Shown here piece after piece: positions 10,044 to 25,258 of a stretch of 25,293 bases of DNA. A model generated the notes under the pieces. That model saw only the letters and a program-made list of their open reading frames with translations, was not told the DNA's origin and did no database searches. Position numbers and translations under genes: made by a program. The stretch is from an uncultured Thermococci archaeon (lineage in GTDB: Archaea > Methanobacteriota_B > Thermococci > Thermococcales > Thermococcaceae): the NCBI GenBank assembly GCA_964487115.1, contig CAZAPD010000045.1:1-25293 (forward strand), written 5' to 3'. Position 1 is the stretch's first letter. Each line of letters starts with the position of its first letter.

Positions 10044-11033
10044 CTATTTTATTACTTCTATATTAAGTTTTAGGCTCTGAATGGTACCATTTATTGCTTT
10101 GAGGATAAGGTTGGTAGCGTTAGTTTCGGCATAGTTTCCGTCCGGAGGAGCAGGAGGGAGTAAAGGTGGCTTATCCTTAAATAGAAGGAACCAAAGCTGC
10201 CATCTTCCGGGTTTGTCTATGCTAAATGTATAATTTTTTTCAAATTGTGGAGTCCAGTTGCCTTCTATATTCACAGGAATGCTGGGTAATGTTATATTAA
10301 ACCAGCCGGGCATGGGATACATAGCGTGTATTTTAGTTGTGTTTGTTCTGAAGTCATAGGTGAGGTTGACCAGCCATATCTGGACATAGTATGTTACATT
10401 CCTGTGTTCATGATTGACAATTCCCAGAATCACAGTGCCCTTTTCTCCGATGGTTAGGTTCGTTGGATAATCTGCGGCTTTTCCTCCAGGACCTAAGATA
10501 TAAAACTCTGTAAATGCCTCTCCCTGCTTTGGATGAGTTATTACATAGGCAAGTGTCCCAATCGAGGTTAGAATAGCTATTATTAAAATTACGGTTAGGA
10601 CTTTATCGAGTTTGCTTGATTGTTCCCATTCAAGTTCTTTTTTAAGTTTCTCAATGCTAATCCATGGAATCCACGGTTCAAAGGCGTTTATACGGCGGTA
10701 GATTGCAACAGTAGAAAATATAATGTTGAATATCGTCAGGCTAATCAGAATAGGGATCAGCCTAATTCCCCATGGAGTATAATTTAAAGCTAAACCAATA
10801 AGTGGAACAATGGCTATGCTTAATCCAAAGCTTAAGGCCACTCTTTCAAGATTGTCAAGCTCTTTCCTATTTGGGAAAAGGGCAGTTATGAAGACATAGC
10901 CGGGAAAGAAGAGTACAAAGGCTAAACCAAGAGCTTTTCTCAACAGGCTGTGTGGAGTGTACAATATCAAAAGATCGAGGGTGATTGAGAGCAGTATAAT
11001 TATTATTAAATCCCAGTAATTTTTTAGTTTCAT
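10044..11033 (-). CDS. DUF1616 family membrane protein
   Basis: LFFPGY..ALFP...LDNLERVALSFGLSIAIVPLIGLALNYTPWGI, FTEFYILG..GKAADYP and GIVNHE. Many N-x-S/T sequons in the C-terminal domain. Confidence 0.9.
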   Translation of the reverse strand: MKLKNYWDLIIIILLSITLDLLILYTPHSLLRKALGLAFVLFFPGYVFITALFPNRKELDNLERVALSFGLSIAIVPLIGLALNYTPWGIRLIPILISLTIFNIIFSTVAIYRRINAFEPWIPWISIEKLKKELEWEQSSKLDKVLTVILIIAILTSIGTLAYVITHPKQGEAFTEFYILGPGGKAADYPTNLTIGEKGTVILGIVNHEHRNVTYYVQIWLVNLTYDFRTNTTKIHAMYPMPGWFNITLPSIPVNIEGNWTPQFEKNYTFSIDKPGRWQLWFLLFKDKPPLLPPAPPDGNYAETNATNLILKAINGTIQSLKLNIEVIK

Positions 11034-11064
11034 TCAACCCACCACAAATAAAAGCGGAGAGGGG

Positions 11065-11079
11065 TTTAAAATGATTTCC
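11065..11079 (-). promoter_or_regulatory. Internal BRE/TATA for the DUF1616 - VP-repeat - HAD genes
   Basis: GGAAATCATTTTAAA on the minus strand, about 30 bp upstream of the DUF1616 start. Confidence 0.45.
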
Positions 11080-11082
11080 AAT

Positions 11083-11643
11083 TCAGGGTTTCTTAATGAG
11101 CTTCACCTCTATGGGAGTCACATCCTTTATCTCGCCTAAGAGGACAAAAATCAGTGTCAGACCCACAATGACAAGTGCTTGTGCTCCTGCATTCGGTAAT
11201 CTGTTTTTTATGGCATATAAGAACGCTATCAATAAGGTCCACCATCCTATCGCATAAAATGAGGCCTTTCCGAATCTGCGGTAAGCTATGTAAAACGCCA
11301 CAAATCCAAGAACTGGTAGGAAGGTGTAGAGTGTGAAGGCCGAAATTGTGAGCACACCGAGGAGTATAAATTCCTCCTTTGAAGGGCTTTTAAGTTCAAC
11401 ATCCCTGAGGATGTCATCGAGCACTACTATAATAGAAAAAGCTACTGTTACTCCATTTATTCCATCCAAGGTATATATTGAGCCGGGATTAAATGAAAAC
11501 GCAATTATTATGACATATATGTAAAAGATCAGCAGAGCGATATCTCTGCTCTTCAGCGCAACAGCATATATTATTGGTGTCAGGAGGAGTATGTAATTCC
11601 CCGTAAGTATGGCGGTTAAGATTGAAGCTATTATCCCTATCAT
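11083..11643 (-). CDS. Multi-pass membrane protein of the MoxR cluster
   Basis: About 6-7 hydrophobic segments. ATGA overlap with the DUF58 gene. Confidence 0.8.
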   Translation of the reverse strand: MIGIIASILTAILTGNYILLLTPIIYAVALKSRDIALLIFYIYVIIIAFSFNPGSIYTLDGINGVTVAFSIIVVLDDILRDVELKSPSKEEFILLGVLTISAFTLYTFLPVLGFVAFYIAYRRFGKASFYAIGWWTLLIAFLYAIKNRLPNAGAQALVIVGLTLIFVLLGEIKDVTPIEVKLIKKP

Positions 11644-12920
11644 AGTTTCTCCACCACCTTTGGAATTAGATCTTTTGGTCCTACTTCAATTATCTTTGTT
11701 TTCCCCATGAGTTTTTTCAGAAGTTTTTTCCTCTCCACATAGCGCATGTAAAGGAGTTTGAGCTTTTCTTCATTTAGGGTGTTCTTATCCATAAAAAATA
11801 TCGGGTTTGGATACAGAACTACTACTGTGGAGCCTCTCTTTTCGAGAATGTTTACAGCTTTCAGTATTTCCCTCGGATGAAGCCCTATATCATCTACTAT
11901 TATTACATAGGAATTGGCCTCAACTTTGAGGGCCGCTCTCACGAGACCCGATGTATAAATCCCCCTGCGCAATGAAAGAATCTTCCGGGTTAAGTGGGAT
12001 TCTCTCTCAAGGGATGAAGCCTTTATAGGAGGGATCCCTTTCTGGGGTGCAAGTTTAAGCTCTCCTACAAATGATTTTCCATCCCTTGGATTCGGAACAA
12101 CCTTAACGACCTTATCAGTATCATAGGCTATTCCGTTTATCATGTAGCCAAATTTCCTGAAATACTGAACAAGTTGAGCCGTTATCAGGATCAGGTAGTC
12201 GACTTTCAGGTTCTTCAGCTCGCGCCTGAATTTTCTATCGACATTTATTAGTAAATATATTTCGCTGAGGGTTTCCCTGTAGAATTCCTTAACTATGAGT
12301 TCGCCCAAGCGTGAGGTTGATTTCCAGTCGATTTTTCTCACATCGTCTCCTGGACGGAATTCCCTTAACTCCTTGAAATCCATGGTTTCAAGCCCTATAC
12401 CAAGTGCTCTTTCCACTTCAGCTATAGCCTCAACGGGTCTTTTTATTTTCAATGCCTCTCTGATACTCCTTGCAGAGGGCAGAACAAGAAGTTTCTCCTC
12501 CTTAAGGTGCATCTCCTTATAGAATAGACCGGGTTCATCCTCAAAGATCACATCTTCTCTAAGCGGTATGTATCCCTTTCTCTGGGGGACTATCGTCTGT
12601 TCAATGAATTTCACTTCTCCTGGTTTGAGTTTAACCTCAATATCTCTTGCAAAAACGAATTCAGATTCCTCTTTTATCTTGAGCCTGCCTGCGGTTTCTG
12701 AGAGATTTTCTACTTTGATACTGGCCTTCAGAGGTTCAAGTTCTGTACCTCTCTCAGGCAATCTCCTCTGCACTTTTATTTTCGGATTAAAGCTGAGTTT
12801 TGCCATAGTGTAGTATCCGGTTATTCCGGCAGCTATCAGGGCAGGTAGGATATTCCCTGTTAAGTATGCTCCTGCAGACAGTACTGCAGCCAGAGAGAGA
12901 AGTAAATCAGTTCTCTTCAT
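11640..12920 (-). CDS. DUF58 (COG1721) protein, MoxR partner
   Basis: Two N-terminal TM segments, an Ig-like region and FKELREFRPGDDVRKIDWKSTSRLGELIVKEF. Confidence 0.92.
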   Translation of the reverse strand: MKRTDLLLSLAAVLSAGAYLTGNILPALIAAGITGYYTMAKLSFNPKIKVQRRLPERGTELEPLKASIKVENLSETAGRLKIKEESEFVFARDIEVKLKPGEVKFIEQTIVPQRKGYIPLREDVIFEDEPGLFYKEMHLKEEKLLVLPSARSIREALKIKRPVEAIAEVERALGIGLETMDFKELREFRPGDDVRKIDWKSTSRLGELIVKEFYRETLSEIYLLINVDRKFRRELKNLKVDYLILITAQLVQYFRKFGYMINGIAYDTDKVVKVVPNPRDGKSFVGELKLAPQKGIPPIKASSLERESHLTRKILSLRRGIYTSGLVRAALKVEANSYVIIVDDIGLHPREILKAVNILEKRGSTVVVLYPNPIFFMDKNTLNEEKLKLLYMRYVERKKLLKKLMGKTKIIEVGPKDLIPKVVEKL

Positions 12921-13837
12921 TCAGTGGGCACCTCTACCCTGTCTAAGGCATCCATTACAATCTCCTTGCCTGTTATGTTGTCTATTTCATATTCGGGCTT
13001 AACTATAATTCTATGAGCCAGAACCGGGAGGGCAAGCTTCTTAACATCGTCTGGTATGACATAGTTCCTACCGCTGAGGTATGCATGCACCCTTGCAGCA
13101 TAAAGAAGGTGTTCTCCAGCTCTTGGTGAAGCTCCAAGTATTACCCTCTCATCCAATCGAGTCTCTTTCACTATTGAGTAAATGTAATCCACTATTGCAT
13201 CGCTAACGTGAACCTTTCTGAAGTCTTTCTTCGCATGCAGTATTTCCGATGATGGAACTACTTGTCTGGCTGCACTGAATTTACCAAGAGATTTTCTTTT
13301 GAGCATAAGTTTCTCCTGCTTTTCATCCAGATATGTTAAGTCTATCTTCATCATGAATCTATCTACCTGAGCCGCTGGAAGGTTGTAAACGCCCTCAAGC
13401 TCGATGGGATTTCTTGTCGCTATCACTATAAATGGTTCTGGAAGTCTAAGTGTCACACCTTCTATTGTGACCTGCCTCTCTTCCATGGCCTCAAGTAAAG
13501 CTGACTGGGTTTTAGGCGATGCCCTGTTTATTTCATCCACAAGAACAACATTGGCAAATATAGGACCCTTTCTCATTTTAAAGTCTCCTGTTCTCATGTC
13601 ATAGAACGTGTGTCCTAAGATATCTGCGGGTAGGATGTCTGGGGTCATTTGAATTCTAACAAACTTTAAACCAAGTGTGCTTGCAAAGTTTTTGCTGAGG
13701 GTTGTCTTGGCTATCCCAGGGATGCCCTCCAAGAGAATATGACCTTCAGCTATAAGAGAAATTGTCATGAGCTCGATTATTTCATCCATACCCACCACAG
13801 CTTTTCCAACTTCCGCTTTTATTTTTTCAAGTATCAT
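12917..13837 (-). CDS. moxR: MoxR family AAA+ ATPase
   Basis: HILLEGIPGIAKT, RIQMTPDILPADILG, DEINRASPKTQSALLEAMEE, ATRNPIE, DRF and GASPRA. ATG 13837 follows GGGTGA (alternative GTG at 13846). Confidence 0.96.
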   Translation of the reverse strand: MILEKIKAEVGKAVVGMDEIIELMTISLIAEGHILLEGIPGIAKTTLSKNFASTLGLKFVRIQMTPDILPADILGHTFYDMRTGDFKMRKGPIFANVVLVDEINRASPKTQSALLEAMEERQVTIEGVTLRLPEPFIVIATRNPIELEGVYNLPAAQVDRFMMKIDLTYLDEKQEKLMLKRKSLGKFSAARQVVPSSEILHAKKDFRKVHVSDAIVDYIYSIVKETRLDERVILGASPRAGEHLLYAARVHAYLSGRNYVIPDDVKKLALPVLAHRIIVKPEYEIDNITGKEIVMDALDRVEVPTE

Positions 13838-13838
13838 G

Positions 13839-14840
13839 TTAATCACCCATGCGTTCTATCATTGCAAGAACTTCCTTTTCATTCCATCCGTTCCTTTTTG
13901 AGAGTTGGATTGCCAGGGTTATTAAATCTTCTTTTTCCCCCCTGAAAAATCTGTCTATAAGGGATGATATAGGCTTAAGGAGATAATCCAAAACCCCAAT
14001 TTCAATCAGGAGTATAACAATGCCCATAATTATTAACATTTTTCTTGCCTTGTCGACAGGTAGGATTCTTGTAATTGTAACTGTTCCGGCACTATAGAGG
14101 TTAAAGTCCATGTGATGGGCTTCATCGATGTATACAGTGCCTCTACCAATATAGTCTATCAGATTGCTTATAAAGGGCTTGTTTTCAGTAAAAAATTGAT
14201 TTGTAAGGATATCTGGATCCGAGAGCACAATAACCTTTCCATCTCCATAAGGAATCTCGGTGAGTATGGGAAACTGGCCTTGATGGAAGTTGACCATAGC
14301 AACTTTACTTGAATAGACCTCTCCTTTTCCTGAGGCTGTAATGGCCGAGGGTTCGTTCATTATTATCCTGCTCACGTTTCTTCCAAGCACCGGATCATTT
14401 ATCCTGACGGTTACTATAATCCTATCATCCTTATTATAGAAAAAGTCTCTCAGTGGAGATTTTGAGATTCTCACAGAGAGATTAAGCTCCTTGAGTATCT
14501 GATCCCCATTTCCAAAGTCATCAGCTATAAAGAGCGTGTTTCCCCTTTTTACAAAGTCCTTGATCTGAGCGAGTTCAGCTGAGGTGTATGATACATCAGG
14601 AGCAATTACAATGAGAACCCCATTTTTATCCTTCAAATTCTCCATGTCAAAAGACTGGAAGAGAGGCACTACATCCACACCTTTCGAATGGAGGAGAATG
14701 GCAAATCTCGCTGTTCCATCCCAAGCAGTATTGAACATGCTGTAGGGAGTTGAGCTCTTGAAGATGGGAACTGTCAGTGGCATTGCTACAAGCGCCATCA
14801 TGAGTACTATCCCGGTGGTGTATACCACAAACTTTCTCAT
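13839..14840 (-). CDS. DUF4350 domain membrane protein
   Basis: N-terminal TM, YSMFNTAWDGTA, FVKRGNTLFIADDFG, GDGKVIVLSDPDILTN, DEAH and C-terminal TM. Confidence 0.88.
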   Translation of the reverse strand: MRKFVVYTTGIVLMMALVAMPLTVPIFKSSTPYSMFNTAWDGTARFAILLHSKGVDVVPLFQSFDMENLKDKNGVLIVIAPDVSYTSAELAQIKDFVKRGNTLFIADDFGNGDQILKELNLSVRISKSPLRDFFYNKDDRIIVTVRINDPVLGRNVSRIIMNEPSAITASGKGEVYSSKVAMVNFHQGQFPILTEIPYGDGKVIVLSDPDILTNQFFTENKPFISNLIDYIGRGTVYIDEAHHMDFNLYSAGTVTITRILPVDKARKMLIIMGIVILLIEIGVLDYLLKPISSLIDRFFRGEKEDLITLAIQLSKRNGWNEKEVLAMIERMGD

Positions 14841-16558
14841 CTATACCCCTCCAGAACCTTTTTGACTCTCTCTCTGAACTCCTTCTCTTCCTCTCCTGTG
14901 AGCGGCATGCTTCCATAGACCAGTTTCTCATGAAGCTCCGTTATTCGTTTCATGTCTTCATATATTTTGCTATTCCTAAAGAGCATGAGAGCTTCTCTTG
15001 GAGTGAGATTCTCGCTGATTCCCAAAATTTTCCTGAGGAATCCATAAAGCCCTGCCATGTCTTCGGGCAGACTAACCGCAGGTTTCTCCTCTTCAGGAAG
15101 TTTAGGATATCCTTCTCTCCTCACCATAGTCTTCTCCTTATGAGGCTTCTTTGTGTATATGGATGCTAAGATTAGGAATGCAAGAATTAAGAGTATCATG
15201 ACATACCTTTTCGCCATGCTTGGGGGATTGACAACATTTAGGATAATCACATTTGATATTGCTCCTGCATGGATGCTATCTCCCCTAAATTTTACATATA
15301 CCTTCAGTTTTCCTGTATCGTTAGGCTTTATGAAAAAGGAAAAACTGCCATTTACTGCGGTTATACTGATATAAGGTCTATTATTTAAATATACCACGAG
15401 TGGAGCTGAGAGGGAGGGTGTCATATTACCTGTGAATTCTATTTTCTCTCCTTTATACCCCTCCGAAGGACCGCTGAGTGTTATTGATGTCGGATATTTG
15501 CTGAAGATTAGGGAAATGTTCTTTGCTGCTGCTGAATGTGCATTATCACCCCGGAATCTGGCAGTGAGCTGTATGATTTGCGGAATATTTGAGGTATAGA
15601 TTGTGTAAAATGCCCCGTTTTCATCTGTAAGTAGTGTTCTGTTTCCAATAGAAATTTCCTTATGTTTAAGTGCATTCCCATAGTAGTCTATCAGCTGTCC
15701 TGAGACATTTAACTCGGAGCCCATCAGTCCACTGAATGTATCGCTCATTATGAAAAGCGAAGGGATTTTTCGAACTGTGATTGGGATTGTATTCGACCTA
15801 TTGGTTCCTTGGAGGGCATATATGGTGTAATTACCCAGCTTTCTAAAGGAGTACTCCACTGAGAACATGCCTTTCTTGGGGGAGGTGAATATCACCATTG
15901 AGCTGTTCTTTCCGAGTATAATTATCTGAATGCTATCATTTGAGGGAGTCGAGCCATATATTGTTATATTTTCGTGGAGGATGGGTTTTGTATTTGAAAT
16001 AAAGATTTCAAATTTTTCTGCATGAATCTTTGTGGAGGTTATCATTTCAAGAATCTTCCGCAGATAGCTTCGTACCCTTTCAGTCTGAGATGTAAAATTA
16101 AGAATTTTCGTTCCATTCATAAGTTTTATTGAATCAATAAGTTCGAGATCCTTATTCATAGTCTCAACCGTCCTTCGTATCCCTGCCACAAGTGCGCTGT
16201 TCGGCTCCTTCTGAAACTGAAGCACGAGTGAGGTTAACTCCTCGAGGTTTTGAGAAAAGTCATAAAATGGTGGTATCACCTCCATGACCTTAGCATTGAT
16301 GCCCTTATTTTGATAATAGATTGATTCGAGCTGTATAAGTTCAAGCTCGGTTGTGGTGTTGTTTGCAAGTTGAATGCTGTAGGGATTATTTTGGAGAGAA
16401 TACCTGAGTGAGTGTTCAAATTTAACAAGGGTCTTTGAGAAATATTCATATATGAAAATATCTCGACTAATGGGTTTTTCAACACCTTTTGCCGAGACTG
16501 AACCAATGCTGGAGCATATTATTAGAGCCACCATTATTACACCAAGAACCCTTTTCAT
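14837..16558 (-). CDS. Secreted, membrane-anchored Ig-like repeat protein with DUF4129-like cytoplasmic tail
   Basis: Signal peptide MKRVLGVIMVALIICSSIGSVSA, helical domain, about 3 beta-rich repeats (TDENGAF, ARFRGD, VKFRGD), TM segment, then LTPRE...HEKLVYG. More than 10 sequons. Confidence 0.8.
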   Translation of the reverse strand: MKRVLGVIMVALIICSSIGSVSAKGVEKPISRDIFIYEYFSKTLVKFEHSLRYSLQNNPYSIQLANNTTTELELIQLESIYYQNKGINAKVMEVIPPFYDFSQNLEELTSLVLQFQKEPNSALVAGIRRTVETMNKDLELIDSIKLMNGTKILNFTSQTERVRSYLRKILEMITSTKIHAEKFEIFISNTKPILHENITIYGSTPSNDSIQIIILGKNSSMVIFTSPKKGMFSVEYSFRKLGNYTIYALQGTNRSNTIPITVRKIPSLFIMSDTFSGLMGSELNVSGQLIDYYGNALKHKEISIGNRTLLTDENGAFYTIYTSNIPQIIQLTARFRGDNAHSAAAKNISLIFSKYPTSITLSGPSEGYKGEKIEFTGNMTPSLSAPLVVYLNNRPYISITAVNGSFSFFIKPNDTGKLKVYVKFRGDSIHAGAISNVIILNVVNPPSMAKRYVMILLILAFLILASIYTKKPHKEKTMVRREGYPKLPEEEKPAVSLPEDMAGLYGFLRKILGISENLTPREALMLFRNSKIYEDMKRITELHEKLVYGSMPLTGEEEKEFRERVKKVLEGYR

Positions 16559-16581
16559 GCCTATCACTTCCATAAAGAATA

Positions 16582-16593: not shown

Positions 16594-16617
16594 AGGTTAT
16601 CCAATTTGGGTGCTAAA

Positions 16618-17340
16618 ATGAGCAGGACTGTAGGAGCGGCTTTAATCGGCGTTGGTATCATCCTCTGGTATTATGGTGGTACTTCATCCAATACCACGTT
16701 CATAAACCTCGGTATCGGTTCTATTATCCTTGGATTGGTAGTTGCAGCTTTTCCTGCCAGAGGATATGTCAGTAAAGAGGCCCTTGAGTTAAGCTGTAGT
16801 GATATGAGTGGGTTTTTTGAAAAGATTGTAGAAAATCTTGAACTCGGGGGAAATCCCGTCTTTATCCCTCCCTATGAAAATCTCCCCCAGGGAGGAGTAT
16901 TTATCCCCAAGGTCAAGGACTTCAGATTGAGTCTTGGAAGGTTTGATGAAGGGGATGTTTTTGTTACAGGAAGTGAGCGAGAAACCGGGGTCTTGATAAG
17001 TCCTGCTCCGGGTTATGCCCTTCTTAGATATTTTGAGGAAAACTATGGGGAGATAAGGAACACAGATGTTGCCTATGCATCATCTGTGATCTCAGGGGGA
17101 TTAAGTGCTTTGGGTATCGGGAGTGCGGAGGTTTTTGAAGAGGATGATACTATGGAAGCATACATAAAGCCTCTCCTCTCGAAAGTTGATAGTGTCTGGA
17201 GTGATCCCATTTCCTCCGCGGTTCTCCTCGGCGTGGCAATGGCAACTGGCGAGCTTATCTCTGTGGAAGAGGTTCAGAGAGTTAATAATTACCTGAGATT
17301 AAAAATCCGAAAGCTCGGGAGTGTGGAAGAATGGCTATGA
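16618..17340 (+). CDS. Conserved archaeal membrane protein (2 N-terminal TM segments + soluble domain)
   Basis: ATG follows GGGTG. Two hydrophobic helices, then VFIPP...VFIP...PAPG. Divergent from the MoxR operon. Confidence 0.8.
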   Translation: MSRTVGAALIGVGIILWYYGGTSSNTTFINLGIGSIILGLVVAAFPARGYVSKEALELSCSDMSGFFEKIVENLELGGNPVFIPPYENLPQGGVFIPKVKDFRLSLGRFDEGDVFVTGSERETGVLISPAPGYALLRYFEENYGEIRNTDVAYASSVISGGLSALGIGSAEVFEEDDTMEAYIKPLLSKVDSVWSDPISSAVLLGVAMATGELISVEEVQRVNNYLRLKIRKLGSVEEWL

Positions 17341-17573
17341 GAGAGAACATGCTAATTTTTCTGGCCTTCTGGATTGTTCTGAGTGGACTTTTAAGCCCGT
17401 CCTTGAGGATTTTCCTGACTGTGTCTCTGATAGGAATCCTAATTGTTCTGGAGATTGGGGAGTTTTATCTTCCAAAAGAAACAAAAGAAATCCTGAAGAT
17501 TTCATCATACTTTCTCCTGCTGATATTTGCCTTCATAGTGGCTCAGAAGGTTTATGAGGTTATAAAAGGATGA
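17337..17573 (+). CDS. Small 3-TM membrane protein
   Basis: ATGA overlap with the upstream gene. Almost entirely hydrophobic, with a LIGILIVLEIG segment. Confidence 0.8.
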   Translation: MRENMLIFLAFWIVLSGLLSPSLRIFLTVSLIGILIVLEIGEFYLPKETKEILKISSYFLLLIFAFIVAQKVYEVIKG

Positions 17574-17660: not shown

Positions 17661-17690
17661 TAATTAAATGTCATTAAATATCATTAAAGC
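17661..17690 (+). promoter_or_regulatory. Three phased direct repeats T(A/C)ATTAAA, candidate RHH operator
   Basis: taattaaatg tcattaaata tcattaaagc, exact 10-bp period, between the TATA box and the RBS. Confidence 0.6.
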
Positions 17691-17704: not shown

Positions 17705-17932
17705 ATGGCAGATGAAAAGAAGTATACAACTGTTTCGATTCCAAAACCCCTCTATGACAAGATTAAAGCAAGAATAGAAGGAACTGGCTTTACTTCAGTT
17801 TCAGACTATGTTACATATGTTTTGAGGGAGGTCTTGGCAAGCTTGGAAGAAGAGGAGAAGGAGGAGGTATTCAGCGAAGAAGAAGAGGAGAAAGTTAAAG
17901 AAAGACTTAGGGCTCTTGGATACCTCGATTGA
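17705..17932 (+). CDS. Ribbon-helix-helix (CopG/Arc/MetJ) regulator with acidic linker and RLRALGY tail
   Basis: YTTVSIP (beta strand), KPLYDKIKARIE, GFTSVSDYVTYVLREVL. GGAGGTG RBS. Confidence 0.9.
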   Translation: MADEKKYTTVSIPKPLYDKIKARIEGTGFTSVSDYVTYVLREVLASLEEEEKEEVFSEEEEEKVKERLRALGYLD

Positions 17933-17933
17933 A

Positions 17934-17948
17934 TTTTTAACTCTTTTT
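17934..17948 (+). terminator. Possible leaky oligo-T terminator between the RHH gene and sat
   Basis: tttttaactcttttt directly after the stop codon. Confidence 0.35.
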
Positions 17949-17959
17949 AGGTGATAATT

Positions 17960-19099
17960 ATGGTTTCTAAGCCGCATGGTGGGAAGTTAATCAGGAGAGT
18001 GGCCGCTGAAAAGACGAGAATGAGGATTCTGAGTGAGCAGCATGAATACCCTTCCGTTGAGATAGACCATGGAAAAGCGATTGACCTTGAGAATATAGCC
18101 CATGGAGTCTACTCTCCACTGAGAGGTTTCCTTACGAGTGACGACTTTCAAAGCGTCCTTGATCATATACGTCTCAGCGACGACACCCCTTGGAGTATTC
18201 CAATAGTTCTCGATGTTGATGAGCCCAATTTTGAAGAGGGTGATGCCATTCTGCTCTATTACAAAGACACTCCCATAGCGAGAATGCATGTGGGTGAGAT
18301 TTACACATACGACAAGAGGGAATTTGCCCAAAAAGTATTCAGGACTACGGATAAAGCTCATCCGGGCGTTGTTAAAGTGTATTCAATGGCCAAATACCTT
18401 GTCGGCGGTGAAATCGAGCTCCTCAATGAAGTGCCGAATCCCTTCGAGAAGTACACCCTGAGGCCAGTTGAGACGCGGGTGCTCTTTAAGGAGCGCGGGT
18501 GGAAAACCATTGTGGCTTTCCAAACAAGGAATGTGCCACATCTCGGTCATGAATACGTGCAAAAAGCAGCTTTAACGTTCGTTGATGGCCTTTTTATCAA
18601 CCCAGTCCTTGGGAAGAAGAAGAGAGGGGATTATAAAGATGAAGTAATAATCAAGGCTTATGAAGCCCTCTTCAAGCACTACTACCCGAGAAATGCGGCG
18701 ACGCTCGCAACAGTACGCTATGAGATGCGTTATGCTGGACCAAGGGAGGCAATCCACCATGCAATAATGAGGAAGAACTTTGGAGCAACTCACTTCATAG
18801 TTGGGAGAGATCATGCAGGAGTTGGCGATTACTACGGCCCCTACGAGGCTTGGGAACTTTTCGATGAGTTTCCCGATCTGGGAATAACCCCAATGTTCAT
18901 ACGTGAGGCTTTCTACTGCAGGAGATGTGGGGGAATGGTTAATGCCAAAATATGCCCACACGAGAGAAAGTTTCACGTACATATAAGCGGAACAAAGCTC
19001 AGGAGAATGATAACGAGCGGTGAAAAGCCGCCTGAATATATGATGAGACCTGAGGTCTATGAAGTGATAAAGAGCTTTAAGAGGCCCTTTGTAGAGTGA
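17960..19099 (+). CDS. sat: Sulfate adenylyltransferase (ATP sulfurylase)
   Basis: PHGGKL, YSPLRGF, FQTRNVPHLGH, MRYAGPREA, GRDHAGVG, zinc site CRRC...CPH, SGTKLR and MRPEV. Confidence 0.98.
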   Translation: MVSKPHGGKLIRRVAAEKTRMRILSEQHEYPSVEIDHGKAIDLENIAHGVYSPLRGFLTSDDFQSVLDHIRLSDDTPWSIPIVLDVDEPNFEEGDAILLYYKDTPIARMHVGEIYTYDKREFAQKVFRTTDKAHPGVVKVYSMAKYLVGGEIELLNEVPNPFEKYTLRPVETRVLFKERGWKTIVAFQTRNVPHLGHEYVQKAALTFVDGLFINPVLGKKKRGDYKDEVIIKAYEALFKHYYPRNAATLATVRYEMRYAGPREAIHHAIMRKNFGATHFIVGRDHAGVGDYYGPYEAWELFDEFPDLGITPMFIREAFYCRRCGGMVNAKICPHERKFHVHISGTKLRRMITSGEKPPEYMMRPEVYEVIKSFKRPFVE

Positions 19100-20037
19100 T
19101 TTCCATGTTAATTATACATCACTGGGACACAGATGGCATAACTTCAGCGGCCCTTGTTGCAAAAGCTTTGAGGTTAGAAGACTTCACTAACCTGAGCCCC
19201 CCAATAGGAGAGTTCAGATTTGACCTGAGGATTAGAAAAGCCATTGAAGAGGCCAAAAATATCTACGTCCTCGATCTCAATTTAGTCCACGAAGTCGAGG
19301 GCATAGAGAAAGAGACCGTCTTCATAGACCACCACATCCAGCCGAGAATCAGAAATCCAAGAATCAAGCAGATAAATCCATTACTGGAGGGAAATGAAGT
19401 CCCCTCAGCCTCCTTCGTGGTTTCATCTTATTTTTCCCTCTGGAACGCTTGGAGCGCTTTGGGAGTAATCGGCGATATTGGAAGCAAAGCCTTTGAAATT
19501 CCAAAAGTTGGAGAGCTCCTAAGAAAAGAAGGGCTTACAAAGGAGGAAGCTTTGAGATTAGTTCAGCTCATTGATTCAAATTACATCGTAATGGAAAGGG
19601 AGAGCGTGGAGAAGGCCGTTGAAATACTTTTAAGCTCAACTCTCAGAGAGCTTTTGGAGTACGAGCCGTGGATCAAAAACGTTGAGGCTATAGAAAGAGC
19701 AATCCAAGATGCCTTCTCCCATGTAGAGCCAAGGGATGGGTTTGCGTTCATAGAATTCGTGAGTCCATTCAATATAATCTCAAAAATTGCGAGGAAAGCA
19801 GTATGGAAAGCTGGCTATGAAGGGGCAATCGTGGTGAACAGGGACTTCCACGGGAAAGGCCAGATATACTTTAGAATCTCCTCCAAGTTGAAAGGGAGAA
19901 TAAACATGAGTGAGATTATTGGCACTCTCAAAGAAAAGGGCTTCAACGCAGGTGGAAAAAGCGAGGTTTTGGGCTGCATTTGCGAAAAGGATAGAATAAG
20001 CGAAGCTTTAGAGATAATTAACTCTTATCTGAGGTGA
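19096..20037 (+). CDS. DHH family phosphoesterase, likely PAP (3'-phosphoadenosine 5'-phosphate) phosphatase
   Basis: HHWDTDG, VLDL, IDHH, GD and AGGK motifs. The PAP role is inferred from context. The start may be ATG 19105. Confidence 0.85.
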   Translation: MISMLIIHHWDTDGITSAALVAKALRLEDFTNLSPPIGEFRFDLRIRKAIEEAKNIYVLDLNLVHEVEGIEKETVFIDHHIQPRIRNPRIKQINPLLEGNEVPSASFVVSSYFSLWNAWSALGVIGDIGSKAFEIPKVGELLRKEGLTKEEALRLVQLIDSNYIVMERESVEKAVEILLSSTLRELLEYEPWIKNVEAIERAIQDAFSHVEPRDGFAFIEFVSPFNIISKIARKAVWKAGYEGAIVVNRDFHGKGQIYFRISSKLKGRINMSEIIGTLKEKGFNAGGKSEVLGCICEKDRISEALEIINSYLR

Positions 20038-20042
20038 TTGAG

Positions 20043-21434
20043 ATGGAAAACGTTAAGAAAGTCTTTGTTATCGGTTTAGATTCAGCTCCTCCAGAGCTTT
20101 TGTTCAACAGGTTTTTGAATGACCTACCAAACATAAAGAAGCTCCTGAAAAAATCAATTTATGGCCCGATGCAGAGCACGATTCCAGCAATCACTATTCC
20201 TGCATGGATGGTCATGGCCACAGGCAAAACACCCGGAGAGCTCGGCTTATACGGCTTTAGACATAGAAAGAAGGGAACGTACAACGACATCTGGATTGCC
20301 CACGCATTAATGGTTAAGGAGAAGGCCGTTTGGCACCACATAGCTGAGAAGGGTAAAAAATCAATTTTAGTTGGTGTTCCTCCGAGCTATCCCCCAAGGC
20401 CAATCAACGGTTACCTCGTGAGCTGTTTCATAACTCCAGATGCTTCAGTTGACTATACCTATCCAAAGGAACTCAAAGGTGAGATTGAGCGCTTAGTCGG
20501 CGAGTACATCTTTGATGTAGTCTTCAGGAAAGAGAATAGAGATGAGGTTAAGGAGCAACTCTGGGAGATGACAAAGAAGAGGTTTGAGGTTATCCGCTAC
20601 TTAATCCAAGAAAAGGAGTGGGATTACTTTCAGTTCGTGGATATAGGTTTGGATAGAGTCCACCACGCCTTTTGGAAGTATTTCGACGAGAACCACCACC
20701 TCTATCCCGGCGACGACAACCCCTACAAAAACGTAATTCCCGATTATTACAGGCTCCTCGATGAGGAGATAGGCAGAACATTGGAGCTCTTGGATTTAGA
20801 TGAGACCGCTATCATAATAGTTTCAGACCACGGGATAAAGGCCATGAAGGGAGCTTTCGCAATAAACCAGTGGCTGATTGAAGAGGGTCTCTTGAAGATT
20901 AAAAACCCCGAGATTCTCAAGGAAGGAAGACAGGTTAGATTCAACGAACTTAAGGTTGACTGGAGCAAAACGATTGCTTGGGCTTGGGGTGGCTACTACT
21001 CAAGAGTCTTCCTCAACGTCAAGGGGAGGGAGCCTCAAGGAATCATTGAGCCCGAGAACTACTACAAGGTTAGGGACGAGATTGCCGAGCTCATAAAGGG
21101 CATTAGAGGACCAAACGGTGAGAAGTGGAACACTAAAGTGTTCTATCCGGAGGAGATATATCCAATCGCCAAAGGCGATAAGCCAGACATGATGGTTTAT
21201 TTGGACGATTTGAACTGGAGAGCTGCTGGAACTCTCGGTTATGAGACGCCATACCTCTTAGAGAATGACTTGGGCCCAGATGATGCGGTTCACGCTGAGT
21301 ATGGAGTGTTCTCCCTGTATCTGCCAAGCATGGAGGAGGCTAAGCAAACCCAGCTCACAATTTACGACTTCGCACCAACAGTGCTCAAGCTCTTTGGAAT
21401 AAGAAAGCCTCTTAGAGGGAGGAGTGTAATATGA
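20043..21434 (+). CDS. Alkaline phosphatase superfamily enzyme (NPP/phosphodiesterase-like, COG3379 type), cytoplasmic
   Basis: VIGLDSA, STIPAITIPAW (Thr nucleophile position), TGKTPG, DRVHH, SDHG, DDAVH and DFAPT. No signal peptide and no CxPxR sulfatase motif. Confidence 0.9.
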   Translation: MENVKKVFVIGLDSAPPELLFNRFLNDLPNIKKLLKKSIYGPMQSTIPAITIPAWMVMATGKTPGELGLYGFRHRKKGTYNDIWIAHALMVKEKAVWHHIAEKGKKSILVGVPPSYPPRPINGYLVSCFITPDASVDYTYPKELKGEIERLVGEYIFDVVFRKENRDEVKEQLWEMTKKRFEVIRYLIQEKEWDYFQFVDIGLDRVHHAFWKYFDENHHLYPGDDNPYKNVIPDYYRLLDEEIGRTLELLDLDETAIIIVSDHGIKAMKGAFAINQWLIEEGLLKIKNPEILKEGRQVRFNELKVDWSKTIAWAWGGYYSRVFLNVKGREPQGIIEPENYYKVRDEIAELIKGIRGPNGEKWNTKVFYPEEIYPIAKGDKPDMMVYLDDLNWRAAGTLGYETPYLLENDLGPDDAVHAEYGVFSLYLPSMEEAKQTQLTIYDFAPTVLKLFGIRKPLRGRSVI

Positions 21435-22003
21435 GCGAGAAGGGAGGAGCAAATGCCCAAGAAGTATCTCTTAGGACGCTGAAGCAGGGATTTACCATCT
21501 GGCTCACCGGACCGAGCGGAGCAGGTAAAACAGTTTTGGCACATGCTCTAAAGAAAAAGCTCAAAAGAATGGGTTATAGAGTGGAAATTTTAGATGGTGA
21601 TGTGATAAGAAAAACTCTCTATCCTGACTTGGGCTTCAGCAGGGAAGCGAGAGAGATGCACAACCGTATAGTTATCCACATGGCCAAGCTCCTATCGAGA
21701 AACGGCGTCATAACAATCGTCTCCTTGATTTCACCGTACAGAGCCGTCAGGGAATATGCGAGGAAGGAGATAGGCAACTTCATTGAAGTCTATGTCTATG
21801 CTCCCCTTGAAGTGAGGATCCAGAGGGATCCAAAGGGTCTCTATGCCAGAGCCATAAAGGGGGAGATTAGGGGATTGACGGGCTATGATGGAGTCTATGA
21901 GGAGCCAGAGAGCCCGGAAGTTAAGGTGGACAGCTCAAAAATGACTCCTGAGGAAGAGGTGGAGGCAGTCTTAAGCAAGGCCAGAGAGCTTGGCTATCTA
22001 TGA
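21431..22003 (+). CDS. cysC: Adenylylsulfate (APS) kinase
   Basis: TIWLTGPSGAGKT, LDGD, LGFS, ISPY, RDPKGLY, TG...YEEP. Confidence 0.97.
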   Translation: MSEKGGANAQEVSLRTLKQGFTIWLTGPSGAGKTVLAHALKKKLKRMGYRVEILDGDVIRKTLYPDLGFSREAREMHNRIVIHMAKLLSRNGVITIVSLISPYRAVREYARKEIGNFIEVYVYAPLEVRIQRDPKGLYARAIKGEIRGLTGYDGVYEEPESPEVKVDSSKMTPEEEVEAVLSKARELGYL

Positions 22004-22012
22004 GGTGGTTTA

Positions 22013-22753
22013 ATGCTAATTTTTATTTTTCTCGGTTTCCTCGTTGGATTTTTAGTTGGACTGACAGGTGTCGGTGGAGGAGCCTTAATGACGCCTTCAC
22101 TCATTTTTCTGGGGGTTGAGCCACTAACCGCTGTTGGCACCGATTTAGTTTACGCCACGATTACAAGGGTTTTTGGTGTGCTCTTCCACAACAAAAAGAG
22201 GAACATCAGATTTGATCTGGCTCTGAGACTTTTTGCTGGAAGTTTACCCGCAATTTTACTCGGGTCTGTTCTGCTTAGGATTATTGATAAAAGCACCCTT
22301 AACAATTATCTCACCTTATTGCTTGGTACAATTCTTGTCCTTAGTTCCTTCCTCAGCTTAATTAAAGGGGAAATTCATGTTCCCCTGAGACCACGGAGGG
22401 AATATCTCTATCTCTTAGGGTTTATTGTCGGTTTAACCGTCCAGTTCACCTCAGTAGGAGCTGGGGTCATTGTTAGCTTTGCCCTGATGAATCTGGCTAA
22501 AATCAGTCCCAAGGAAGTTGTTGGCGTTACGATATTTTATGGTCTGGCCTTGTCCTCCTTCAGCGCCCTAAACTATGCGTTTCTGGGAAGTGTGAATTAC
22601 CACTTAGCCTTAGTGTTGATTGCCGGCACTTTGCCGGGTGTTTATTTAGGAACCCATATAAATGCCAGAACTGATAGGGATAAGTTGAAGAGAGTTATTA
22701 ACGTCATAATACTAGCCATTGGGCTCCTGATATTGGTTCAGAGAATAGTTTGA
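22013..22753 (+). CDS. TauE/SafE (TSUP) family transporter
   Basis: GFLVGLTGVGGGALMTP, AVGTDL and TSVGAG. About 8 TM segments. Confidence 0.92.
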   Translation: MLIFIFLGFLVGFLVGLTGVGGGALMTPSLIFLGVEPLTAVGTDLVYATITRVFGVLFHNKKRNIRFDLALRLFAGSLPAILLGSVLLRIIDKSTLNNYLTLLLGTILVLSSFLSLIKGEIHVPLRPRREYLYLLGFIVGLTVQFTSVGAGVIVSFALMNLAKISPKEVVGVTIFYGLALSSFSALNYAFLGSVNYHLALVLIAGTLPGVYLGTHINARTDRDKLKRVINVIILAIGLLILVQRIV

Positions 22754-23265: not shown

Positions 23266-23631
23266 TTAAATTGTTGCGGTTAACGGAGGAAGTCCTTCAT
23301 TTGTGCTCAAGAATTTCATGCTATCTTCTCTTCTTTTTCCTCTCTGCAAAACCTGGATAAAAATGGATATGACAATTTCTTTTTCTGTGATTCTAATTTC
23401 AGCATGAAGTTGTTGAATTCCTCTAGAAAGCAGGTAGGGGCTAATTTTAAACTTTTTGGAAGCATCTAGCATTTCAAATCCAACAACCGCTAATTCACCA
23501 TTAATCTTGCCTAAATCTAAAATTATATCGCCTAACTGAACCGAGCTTTGGTATTTTCCTTCAGGAATTCTTACAAAGAGAGAATCCCCTAATGGGTCAT
23601 AATCGATTATCTTTATCCTGTCATTTTTCAT
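23266..23631 (-). CDS. DUF2283 family protein (putative antitoxin)
   Basis: DYDPLGDSLFVRI...SVQLGDIILDL...VVGFEMLDASK pattern. Overlaps the upstream toxin-like gene. Confidence 0.85.
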   Translation of the reverse strand: MKNDRIKIIDYDPLGDSLFVRIPEGKYQSSVQLGDIILDLGKINGELAVVGFEMLDASKKFKISPYLLSRGIQQLHAEIRITEKEIVISIFIQVLQRGKRREDSMKFLSTNEGLPPLTATI

Positions 23632-23924
23632 TTGTTTTCATCCTCCGTCTTTTTTCCTGTAGATATGCAGTTATCAGGGTTAAATACAGTTTGCTTTTAG
23701 CCTGCCTAGCCTTAATTACAACAACCAAATCCTTGTCATCAGGTAGTGGATAGTAGAGGAGGAATTTCTCGCCAACTTCATCTTGCTGAATTATTCCCAC
23801 AATCCTCTTTGGATTGTTAAACACTTCTCGTATCCCACTTATGAGGTATGTTTCTTCCAGCCAGACGGTTTTGAAAATGAACAGTCTCTATGAACTCAAT
23901 GTTCTTTGAGCGAATGAGCTTCAT
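23621..23924 (-). pseudogene. DUF4258/RelE-like putative toxin, +1 frameshift
   Basis: MKLIRSKNIEFIETVHFQNRLAGRNIPHKW joins IREVFNNPKR...DLVVVI...LITAY if one G is removed from TGGG (ccc at 23834-23836). Confidence 0.75.
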
Positions 23925-24260: not shown

Positions 24261-25258
24261 ATGAAGGTTCTGATAATGGCTGGCGGTTATGCCACCCCCC
24301 ACTGTGGCCCATAACAAAGAATAATCCCAAGGCACTGCTGCCCGTTGGAAGCGGGGTGATTCTGGATTACATTCTTGAAAAAACACGAGAGCTTGATATG
24401 GAGACATACATTTCAACAAACAGATTTTTTGAGCATCATTTCAGACCCTATGCAGAGAGACAAGGAGTTGGGCTTATAGTCGAGGACACGCTTTATGAGG
24501 AAGAGAAGCTCGGCACGATAGGTGCCATAAACATGGCTGTTGAAAAGCTTGGCCTTGATGATTATCTGATCATCGCAGGAGATAACCTCTTTTCATTCAA
24601 CCTTAAGGACTTTCTGGAGAGATATGAGGGAAAGCCCCTCATAGCGGTCTATGATGTTGGTGATTTTGAGCTGGCAAGGAGGTATGGTGTGGTGGTTCTT
24701 GAGGGTGATAGGATTATAGATTTCCAAGAAAAGCCTGCAGAGCCCAAATCCACACTCATAAGTACTGGTGTTTATGCCTTCCCGAAAGAGATAATGGTGA
24801 GAATTAGCGAGTATCTACAAGACGGCAATCGTGATTCTCCCGGCTACTTCCTCCAGTGGCTTTTATCTGAGGGTGTTGAGATACATGCATACAAATTTGA
24901 TGAATACTGGTATGATATAGGGTCAGCCGATAGTTATCTTGAGGCTTTGAGGACTCTACTAAAGGAAAGCCACATAGAGGAGATTCAGATCAGCCCCTAC
25001 TCCAAAATAATTTCCCCTGTTGTGATAAAGAAGGGCGCGAAAATTTTGGGGAGGTCAATGATAGGACCCTACGCATACATTGGCGAAAACTGTATTATTG
25101 AAAGCTCAGACGTGAGCGACTCCATAATTTTCAAGAACACGATAATCAGAAACTCAACGATCTGGCGTTCAATTATTGATGAGAAGTGTGAGATAAGGAA
25201 TTTGGAGCTTAAGAAAAGCTTAGTTGGAGGACATGCTAAGATACAGAGGGGAGACTGA
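24261..25258 (+). pseudogene. Sugar-1-phosphate nucleotidyltransferase (NDP-sugar synthase, COG1208) with left-handed beta-helix tail, frameshifted at codons 12-13
   Basis: MKVLIMAGGYAT in one frame and LWPITKNNPKALLPVG...AGDN...YGV...EKP...WYDIG in another. The break is the C6 run at 24295-24300. Confidence 0.88.

Follow-up and report, generated by a model that had tools for sequence, protein, structure and literature searches.

Why does a small putative transcription factor, encoded in an operon for the synthesis of 3'-phosphoadenosine-5'-phosphosulfate (PAPS), end in a peptide that also occurs at the C-terminus of enzymes of the AlkP superfamily? The question is raised by a 25,293-nucleotide stretch of DNA from an uncultured Thermococci archaeon (assembly GCA_964487115.1, contig CAZAPD010000045.1, positions 1 to 25,293; hereafter the window). 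It encodes a predicted ribbon-helix-helix (RHH), CopG-like protein of 75 amino acids (17705..17932, plus strand, ATG at 17705), in which a DNA-binding part at approximately residues 6-47 is followed by an acidic linker and a tail. The protein ends in FSEEEEEKVKERLRALGYLD. Its 20-residue, portable tail has the pattern FS-EEE-V-ERL-ALGY-L (17870..17929, plus strand), begins at F56 (codon at 17870), and includes Tyr73 (codon 17921-17923). The third gene after it, preceded by sat and a DHH gene, encodes a tail-less AlkP-superfamily enzyme with the fold of the nucleotide pyrophosphatases/phosphodiesterases (NPPs) (20043..21434, plus strand, PF01663; ATG at 20043, alternative GTG at 20034). A preliminary description of the window had reported a 75-residue RHH protein with an acidic linker and a tail at 17870-17932, and the AlkP gene three genes downstream, as the coordinates of the open reading frames (ORFs) confirm. 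It had also proposed that the tail is a missing part of the enzyme, supplied in trans by the regulator. As set out below, trans action is probable and the missing part is not; the tail may well be a substrate of the enzyme.

The tail is real and conserved. Its motif LxxLGY was present in 119 of the 120 closest RHH homologs and in none of the 120 closest homologs of the AlkP enzyme. That other AlkP-family members carry the tail in cis, as had been claimed earlier, was borne out for 23 of 133 full-length representatives (among the 150 best matches listed), with a tail-less majority of 110. When a profile of 25 enzyme tails was compared with the 8,506 ORFs of the genome, the RHH tail was the sole significant match (29.8 bits, E = 1.6e-7), the next-best ORF scoring 11.9 bits (E = 0.074); compared directly with the tail of enzyme P0259, it was identical at 14 of 19 positions. 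Because the RHH tail was the only significant match in the genome, and at this E-value, the resemblance goes beyond chance, and the sequences indicate that the RHH tail is homologous to the C-termini of the tail-bearing AlkP relatives. A convergent origin, in which LxxLGY would be a common helix cap, is very improbable. The same cap is indeed seen in the last helix that CysC proteins possess themselves and in a weak PG_binding_2 match, and the CysC of the window ends its own last helix in LGYL, which scores 3.9 bits with the tail profile and is not the tail. However, a 20-residue match with 14/19 identity, found as the sole genome match at E = 1.6e-7, exceeds a cap, and tailed CysC proteins carry the tail in addition to their own last helix, after which it has been added. 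The profile result and these double helices appear largely to refute convergence.

Beyond RHH proteins and AlkP-type enzymes, the tail was found on CysC, CysD, sulfatase-like proteins, a sulfotransferase here called ST190, and a stand-alone ORF of 36 amino acids. The latter (L217:8449-8559) encodes nothing but the tail; its surroundings are glycosyltransferase-like, and an ST190 gene lies 3 kb away. When longer proteins containing the tail region were sought, 7 of 199 candidates qualified, all of them extended RHH fusions, which is weak evidence. Solved structures searched with the tail profile gave no match (best E = 0.12), and a search of the ESM Atlas with the tail gave no usable match. No description of the tail, nor of tyrosine sulfation in this operon, was found in a literature search made mostly without subscription papers and without supplements. 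The claim that the circuit had not been described before thus holds for the tail within the searchable literature; it does not extend to the operon, which is already known from Thermococcus and Pyrococcus.

The tail does not appear to complete the fold of the enzyme. AlphaFold2 (AF2) modelled the tail-less AlkP protein as a complete fold, with a predicted local distance difference test (pLDDT) score of 96. Foldseek placed this model closest to ENPP1 and Xac NPP (E ~1e-17); searched by sequence, the protein had no match among solved structures. Its two-metal site is intact, with D13, T51, D204, H208, D262, H263, and H417 conserved; the roles of the metal ligands and of T51 as nucleophile are assigned by analogy with other NPPs. 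The fold is like that of the NPP family (Xac NPP, ENPP1-7; Z ~29, root-mean-square deviation 3.4-3.7 Å over ~345 residues), and so are the metal ligands. The window enzyme differs, however, in its sequence (13-17% identity), in being cytoplasmic and part of a PAPS operon, and nothing in the aligned range of the NPPs corresponds to the tail. In the AF2 model of the tail-bearing relative P0294 (492 aa), the tail is a helix at residues 475-487, in a block with pLDDT 85-95, suggesting that a cis tail packs on the enzyme; the alignment with solved NPPs covers its residues 1-469 and leaves out the tail. Since the solved NPPs end before the tail and the tail-less model is complete, the tail, as far as the models go, lies outside the AlkP fold. 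The enzyme of the window ends in DFAPTVLKLFGIRKPLRGRSVI at 21434, 22 residues past its last D-x-x-P-T motif, like its closest relatives. It had been said to end abruptly; that it lacks the tail is correct, and natural for its relatives (LxxLGY in 0/120), but "abruptly" overstates the case, given that 110 of the 133 representatives are tail-less and that the solved NPP fold ends there too.

The tail is also kept where an entirely different protein occupies the position of the AlkP gene. Among the 80 RHH loci compared (the scan covered 14 of 64 parts and confirmed 126 loci, of which the best 80 were taken), this slot held an AlkP ortholog in 37, ST190 in 16, a short AlkP protein (240 aa) in 6, none of these in 21, and never two of them. 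In the genomes of the 21 loci without a slot gene, AlkP was found elsewhere in 4, ST190 elsewhere in 13, and neither in 4. The RHH tail is thereby not restricted to company with a tail-less AlkP enzyme: ST190 was present instead in 29 of the 80 RHH genomes and in 42 of 54 in Thermoplasmatota. ST190 is a PAPS-type sulfotransferase of 190 amino acids, which passes the PF00685 and PF13469 cut-offs and aligns with cytosolic sulfotransferases (SULTs) only to approximately residue 236. AlkP and ST190 are unrelated folds, and the operon slot holds either one or the other. Because the same RHH tail is kept where this unrelated fold replaces AlkP, a split enzyme is not supported. The notion fails as well on the tail lying outside the NPP fold, on the completeness of the tail-less model, and on the pyrophosphatase activity of the T. 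onnurineus counterpart, TON_1705, given in the accessible part of its published accounts.

The survey of 201 Thermoplasmatota, which like most genomes surveyed here are largely incomplete assemblies, shows the same division. AlkP was found in 13 genomes, ST190 in 43, and both in none (2.8 expected, P = 0.04, for genomes that are kin and not independent). Among the 54 genomes in which RHH was matched over its full length, an overlap of 7 was expected and 0 was found, with the same dependence among kin; one or the other enzyme was present in 51 of these 54 genomes versus 5 of the 147 others, again counted over related genomes. Conversely, a tailed RHH protein was present in 42 of the 43 ST190 genomes and in 11 of the 13 AlkP genomes, and none of the 24 genomes that have a tail-less AlkP ortholog contained ST190. 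RHH proteins nearly identical to that of the window adjoin ST190 (L341-L344), the tail is fused to ST190 itself in three loci (L219, L240, and L377), and at 10 of 80 metagenome loci RHH and ST190 are neighbors while sat is absent. The tail is conserved at 0.85 identity beside ST190 and at 0.78 beside AlkP. As for other tail partners, RHH-AlkP and RHH-ST190 pairs that occur without sat make Sat less plausible as the fixed partner, and CysD/CysN were set aside, being present in only 7 of the 80 RHH loci. Separately, a short AlkP-type protein of 230-255 amino acids fills the slot in cysD/cysN operons (L015, L022, L027, L054, L057, L061, L117, and L118), in which the CysD-like proteins end in a related RxLGYM helix.

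Supply of the tail in trans, by contrast with the split enzyme, was upheld when tail-less enzymes and tail genes were surveyed across genomes. Of 301 bacterial genomes (the phylum of G049), 40 had an ortholog, 39 loci were fetched, and 38 complete ORFs were scored. Thirty-four orthologs were tail-less, and for 32 of these a tail gene lay no more than 5 kb away (RHH in 26, CysC only in 5, a paralog in 1); both exceptions had a tail elsewhere in the genome. The 4 cis-tail orthologs with genomic context had no tail gene nearby and count as one event, because they form one clade; cis tails seen without context fall at approximately 5 places in the enzyme tree, some with weakly supported nodes. All 33 complete orthologs from 251 Thermoproteota (the phylum of G048) were tail-less, and 24 had an RHH tail within the same distance; for the other 9, a tail was present elsewhere in 5 and absent in 2 (G511 and G613), and 2 were on short contigs. 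A tail gene was also near 7 of 8 orthologs (4 on RHH, 3 on a paralog) in a sample of 151 small-genome archaea of 0.6-1.9 Mb (the phylum of G017), a sample that haloarchaea fall outside of. Within the window's own family (83 genomes), RHH and AlkP occurred together in 57, AlkP alone in 1, and RHH with an AlkP fragment in 1; this co-occurrence was set aside as evidence, as it reflects gain and loss of the whole operon. The tail thus probably acts in trans on the tail-less enzyme.

What it does there may hinge on Tyr73. This residue is kept in 222 of 224 RHH sequences, a count biased by one search pattern that contained Tyr, and in 76 of 76 RHH proteins found through their neighboring genes; among 63 of the latter read at a comparison column, Tyr35 of the core, 35 had Tyr and 24 had Phe. 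Tyrosine sulfotransferases accept a Tyr that is preceded by an acidic stretch. The reading that we favor, tentatively and with slightly less than even confidence, is that the tail is a substrate of the slot enzyme, whether AlkP or ST190, and that Tyr73 is covalently sulfated and serves as acceptor or shuttle. A common substrate would be the simplest account if the slot enzymes of either fold, sulfotransferase or NPP, act on this one peptide. Sat and CysC make PAPS, and the DHH protein removes 3'-phosphoadenosine-5'-phosphate (pAp), as is established for the published cluster. The co-distribution, and the fact that both folds occur with the tail fused in cis, suggest that it docks on the slot enzyme, which would then move the sulfate from PAPS to the oxygen of Tyr73. 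The sulfotyrosine, an aryl sulfate, could in turn act as donor for AlkP-type or sulfatase-like transferases encoded in surface-glycan clusters, for which Agl30/Agl31 offer a precedent. Docking or sulfation might also alter repression of the operon and so tie the autoregulator to PAPS flux; this effect on transcription is speculative and the least supported step. The full relay, from PAPS through a loader (a minimal sulfotransferase or NPP-fold enzyme) to the tail Tyr and on to glycan transferases, with the repressor as carrier and its sulfation state reporting flux, is, taken as a whole, rather unlikely.

Several observations weigh against sulfation of Tyr73. The AlkP enzyme keeps the full NPP two-metal site with its Thr nucleophile. 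NPP chemistry proceeds by attack at phosphorus, and sulfuryl transfer from PAPS by an NPP fold is hypothetical. The T. onnurineus protein TON_1705 has been published as a pyrophosphatase in the accessible parts of two accounts (PMC4463584, PMC9653972). Nine of 347 AlkP-family C-termini keep the helix without the Tyr (10 matched, one being rejected as false), so that the helix can be retained as a lid, and the invariant Tyr may serve hydrogen bonding only. A tail-less ortholog occurs in two genomes without any tail, namely G511, assembled as one 2.0-Mb contig, and G141, in which sat and DHH are broken. Two further genomes, G1001 and G921, which are possibly incomplete, have RHH-AlkP without a match to sat or cysC. 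ST190 was present in 2 of 28 AlkP genomes (G331 and G369), both from the cis-tail clade, and a tail gene was seen at only 6 of 45 more distant ST190 loci, many of them on short contigs. Finally, a canonical sulfotransferase in a glycan cluster of the window's own genome offers an outlet for PAPS that needs no relay.

The main rival, a wider form of the docking proposed in the preliminary description, is a noncovalent docking peptide, a lid, activator, or tether in which Tyr73 makes contacts and stays unmodified. We regard this as possible, on the doubtful side, and hold the same of its particulars, in which the tail of CysC channels PAPS and that of RHH is held or released by a ligand. Docking fits all co-distribution data, the existence of Tyr-less tail variants, and a cis tail modelled with pLDDT ~95, and tethering would agree with a tail on CysC and CysD. 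Yet a noncatalytic site for this one peptide would have had to evolve in each of two unrelated folds, of which one is that of a sulfotransferase and has a short C-terminus, and the 36-residue stand-alone tail has nothing to tether. A further account, which we consider improbable, makes AlkP a pyrophosphatase that pulls the Sat reaction, while the tail binds Sat, CysD, or CysC or mediates RHH oligomerization on a tandem operator. The presence of sat or cysD in 72 of the 80 RHH loci agrees with it, as do the tandem boxes, which imply cooperative binding, and the activity of TON_1705 in the accessible parts of PMC9653972 and PMC4463584. It leaves unexplained, however, why AlkP and ST190 alternate and why the tail is fused to both, and it has to contend with RHH-AlkP and RHH-ST190 pairs that lack sat nearby and with a family I pyrophosphatase in the genome. 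The kcat reported for TON_1705 is 2.1/s (Km 18.8 uM), compared with 3e4/s for Ton1914 (table of PMC9653972). With the family I enzyme present and this difference in rate, a slow second pyrophosphatase would be a weak reason to keep the AlkP gene. That the window enzyme is the ortholog of TON_1705 rests on gene order.

Precedents for a tyrosine shuttle exist in other chemistry. As described in the accessible part of PMC12148441, DltX/PatA are C-terminal acyl-tyrosine shuttles, with a short motif and an invariant Tyr that are fused to an enzyme or form a separate microprotein and that are placed between two enzymes in a pathway modifying the cell envelope. They are membrane-bound, carry an acyl group on an FXYXXF motif, and have MBOAT and SGNH partners, whereas the present tail is a soluble acidic helix in a PAPS context, with an NPP or sulfotransferase partner, a transcription factor as carrier, and a covalent intermediate that is proposed. 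The tail would thus work like DltX/PatA by analogy and not as a member of that group, having neither FXYXXF nor MBOAT/SGNH genes in its operon. In caprazamycin biosynthesis, Cpz8, Cpz6, and Cpz4 reportedly sulfate in two steps, PAPS-dependent loading of a phenolic carrier being followed by transfer by a second enzyme. That carrier is a small polyketide; the one proposed here is a protein tyrosine. The accessible part of PMC11677658 likewise gives a two-step sulfation in caprazamycin synthesis and mentions Cpz8. Agl30/Agl31 of Halobacterium salinarum are AlkP-superfamily, sulfatase-like proteins that sulfate N-glycan sugars; their likeness to the window proteins is one of description, and they act on sugars (PMC11980604, accessible part). 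The words "PAPS", "donor", and "tyrosine" do not occur in the main text of that paper as far as it was accessible.

A Tyr shuttle, if it exists, would answer two gaps, since the accessible account of PAPS synthesis in Thermococcales comes without a consumer, and the archaeal AlkP-superfamily glycan sulfotransferases come without a named donor (PMC11980604, accessible part). It would also assign a role to a regulator family of >2000 clusters and to a C-terminal motif of many unassigned AlkP, sulfatase-like, and sulfotransferase proteins, show that an NPP fold can act as a sulfotransferase, and extend protein tyrosine sulfation to archaea. Possible consumers of PAPS are encoded in the genome itself. 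A surface-glycan cluster (L326, G000:C96:1-12522) contains a flippase, glycosyltransferases, a 477-aa AlkP paralog without the tail, and a 338-aa canonical sulfotransferase, found by direct scan after a PF13469 search of the genome had missed it; on another contig (L319, G000:C99), a sulfatase-like gene, truncated where the contig ends, comes after a second flippase. The AlkP paralog, the sulfotransferase, and the sulfatase-like gene product are likely PAPS consumers. Long AlkP paralogs occur in 17 of the 58 genomes of the family with the operon, and in 0 of 23 with no match.

The RHH protein itself looks like an autoregulator that would bind tandem boxes over its own promoter. Three boxes T[AC]AT[TG]A with a 10-bp period (17661..17686, plus strand), a candidate RHH operator, are flanked by a TATA-like element on one side and the ribosome-binding site on the other. 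Of 105 regions upstream of RHH relatives, 65 contained two exact boxes separated by 4 bp (shuffled sequences: mean 0.27, maximum 3), and 0-4 contained the pair at other spacers. In the window's own genome there were 5 two-box matches, and the triple box was found only at the RHH promoter. Pfam RHH_1 scored 15.9 bits (cut-off 20.5) and matches to NikR were weak (E = 0.005 and 0.1); 2,184 of 2,188 candidates were homologs, with CopG/Arc-MetJ as source names. A second, divergent RHH protein with the same tail is present in many operons (L265-L299, L060, L065, L068, L070, L072, and L088). The RHH proteins of L329 and L339 have kept RLxALGY and lost the acidic linker. Proteins of 212-221 amino acids (P0241-P0245; L266:398-1048; L270:7599-8240) carry an extra N-terminal RHH-like and nuclease-like part before the tailed RHH, which in P0241 matches PF24434.

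The remaining operon genes, all on the plus strand, encode ATP sulfurylase (sat, 17960..19099, PF01747, NF003166 above cut-off), a DHH/DHHA1 phosphoesterase (19105..20037, PF01368), which by gene order is the pAp phosphatase of the published cluster, adenosine-5'-phosphosulfate (APS) kinase (cysC, 21431..22003, PF01583, TIGR00455), the start of which overlaps the AlkP stop, and a TauE/SafE membrane transporter (22013..22753, PF01925). In content and order they match the published copG-sat-DHH-NPP-cysC-tauE cluster, and the names of the homologous proteins assign the window to the Thermococcaceae. In Pyrococcus yayanosii (PYCH_17520-17560), the accessible part of the account names a putative copG factor, a phosphodiesterase speculated to degrade pyrophosphate, and no identified sulfotransferase (PMC8268124); the P. 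yayanosii protein P0123 is 88% identical to the window's AlkP enzyme. Thermococcus onnurineus has the cluster TON_1704-1707 (PMC4463584, accessible part). The published Pyrococcus and Thermococcus clusters have the same genes in the same order (copG, ATP sulfurylase, DHH pApase, type I phosphodiesterase, APS kinase, with tauE adjacent); in their accessible parts, the accounts term the AlkP protein a pyrophosphatase and name neither the tail, nor the operator, nor a swap with a sulfotransferase.

Natural fusions of Sat-AlkP, CysC-AlkP-tail, and AlkP...Sat type were observed (P0261, P0271, and P0277), tying the AlkP enzyme to PAPS synthesis. Decayed second operon copies or remnants occur in Thermococcaceae (L111, L122, L123, L124, and L127), L122 being an in-frame sat-DHH-AlkP deletion fusion. 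Elsewhere in the window, a cluster of membrane proteins with an AAA ATPase occupies 10044-16573 (minus strand) and 16606-17573 (plus strand), with members that we take to be MoxR, DUF58, DUF4350, and DUF1616. The two ORFs directly upstream of the operon had no Pfam match. Downstream, two small overlapping ORFs of 67 and 121 amino acids (23266-23824, minus strand), which we presume to resemble a toxin-antitoxin pair, are followed by a nucleotidyltransferase gene (24356-25258).

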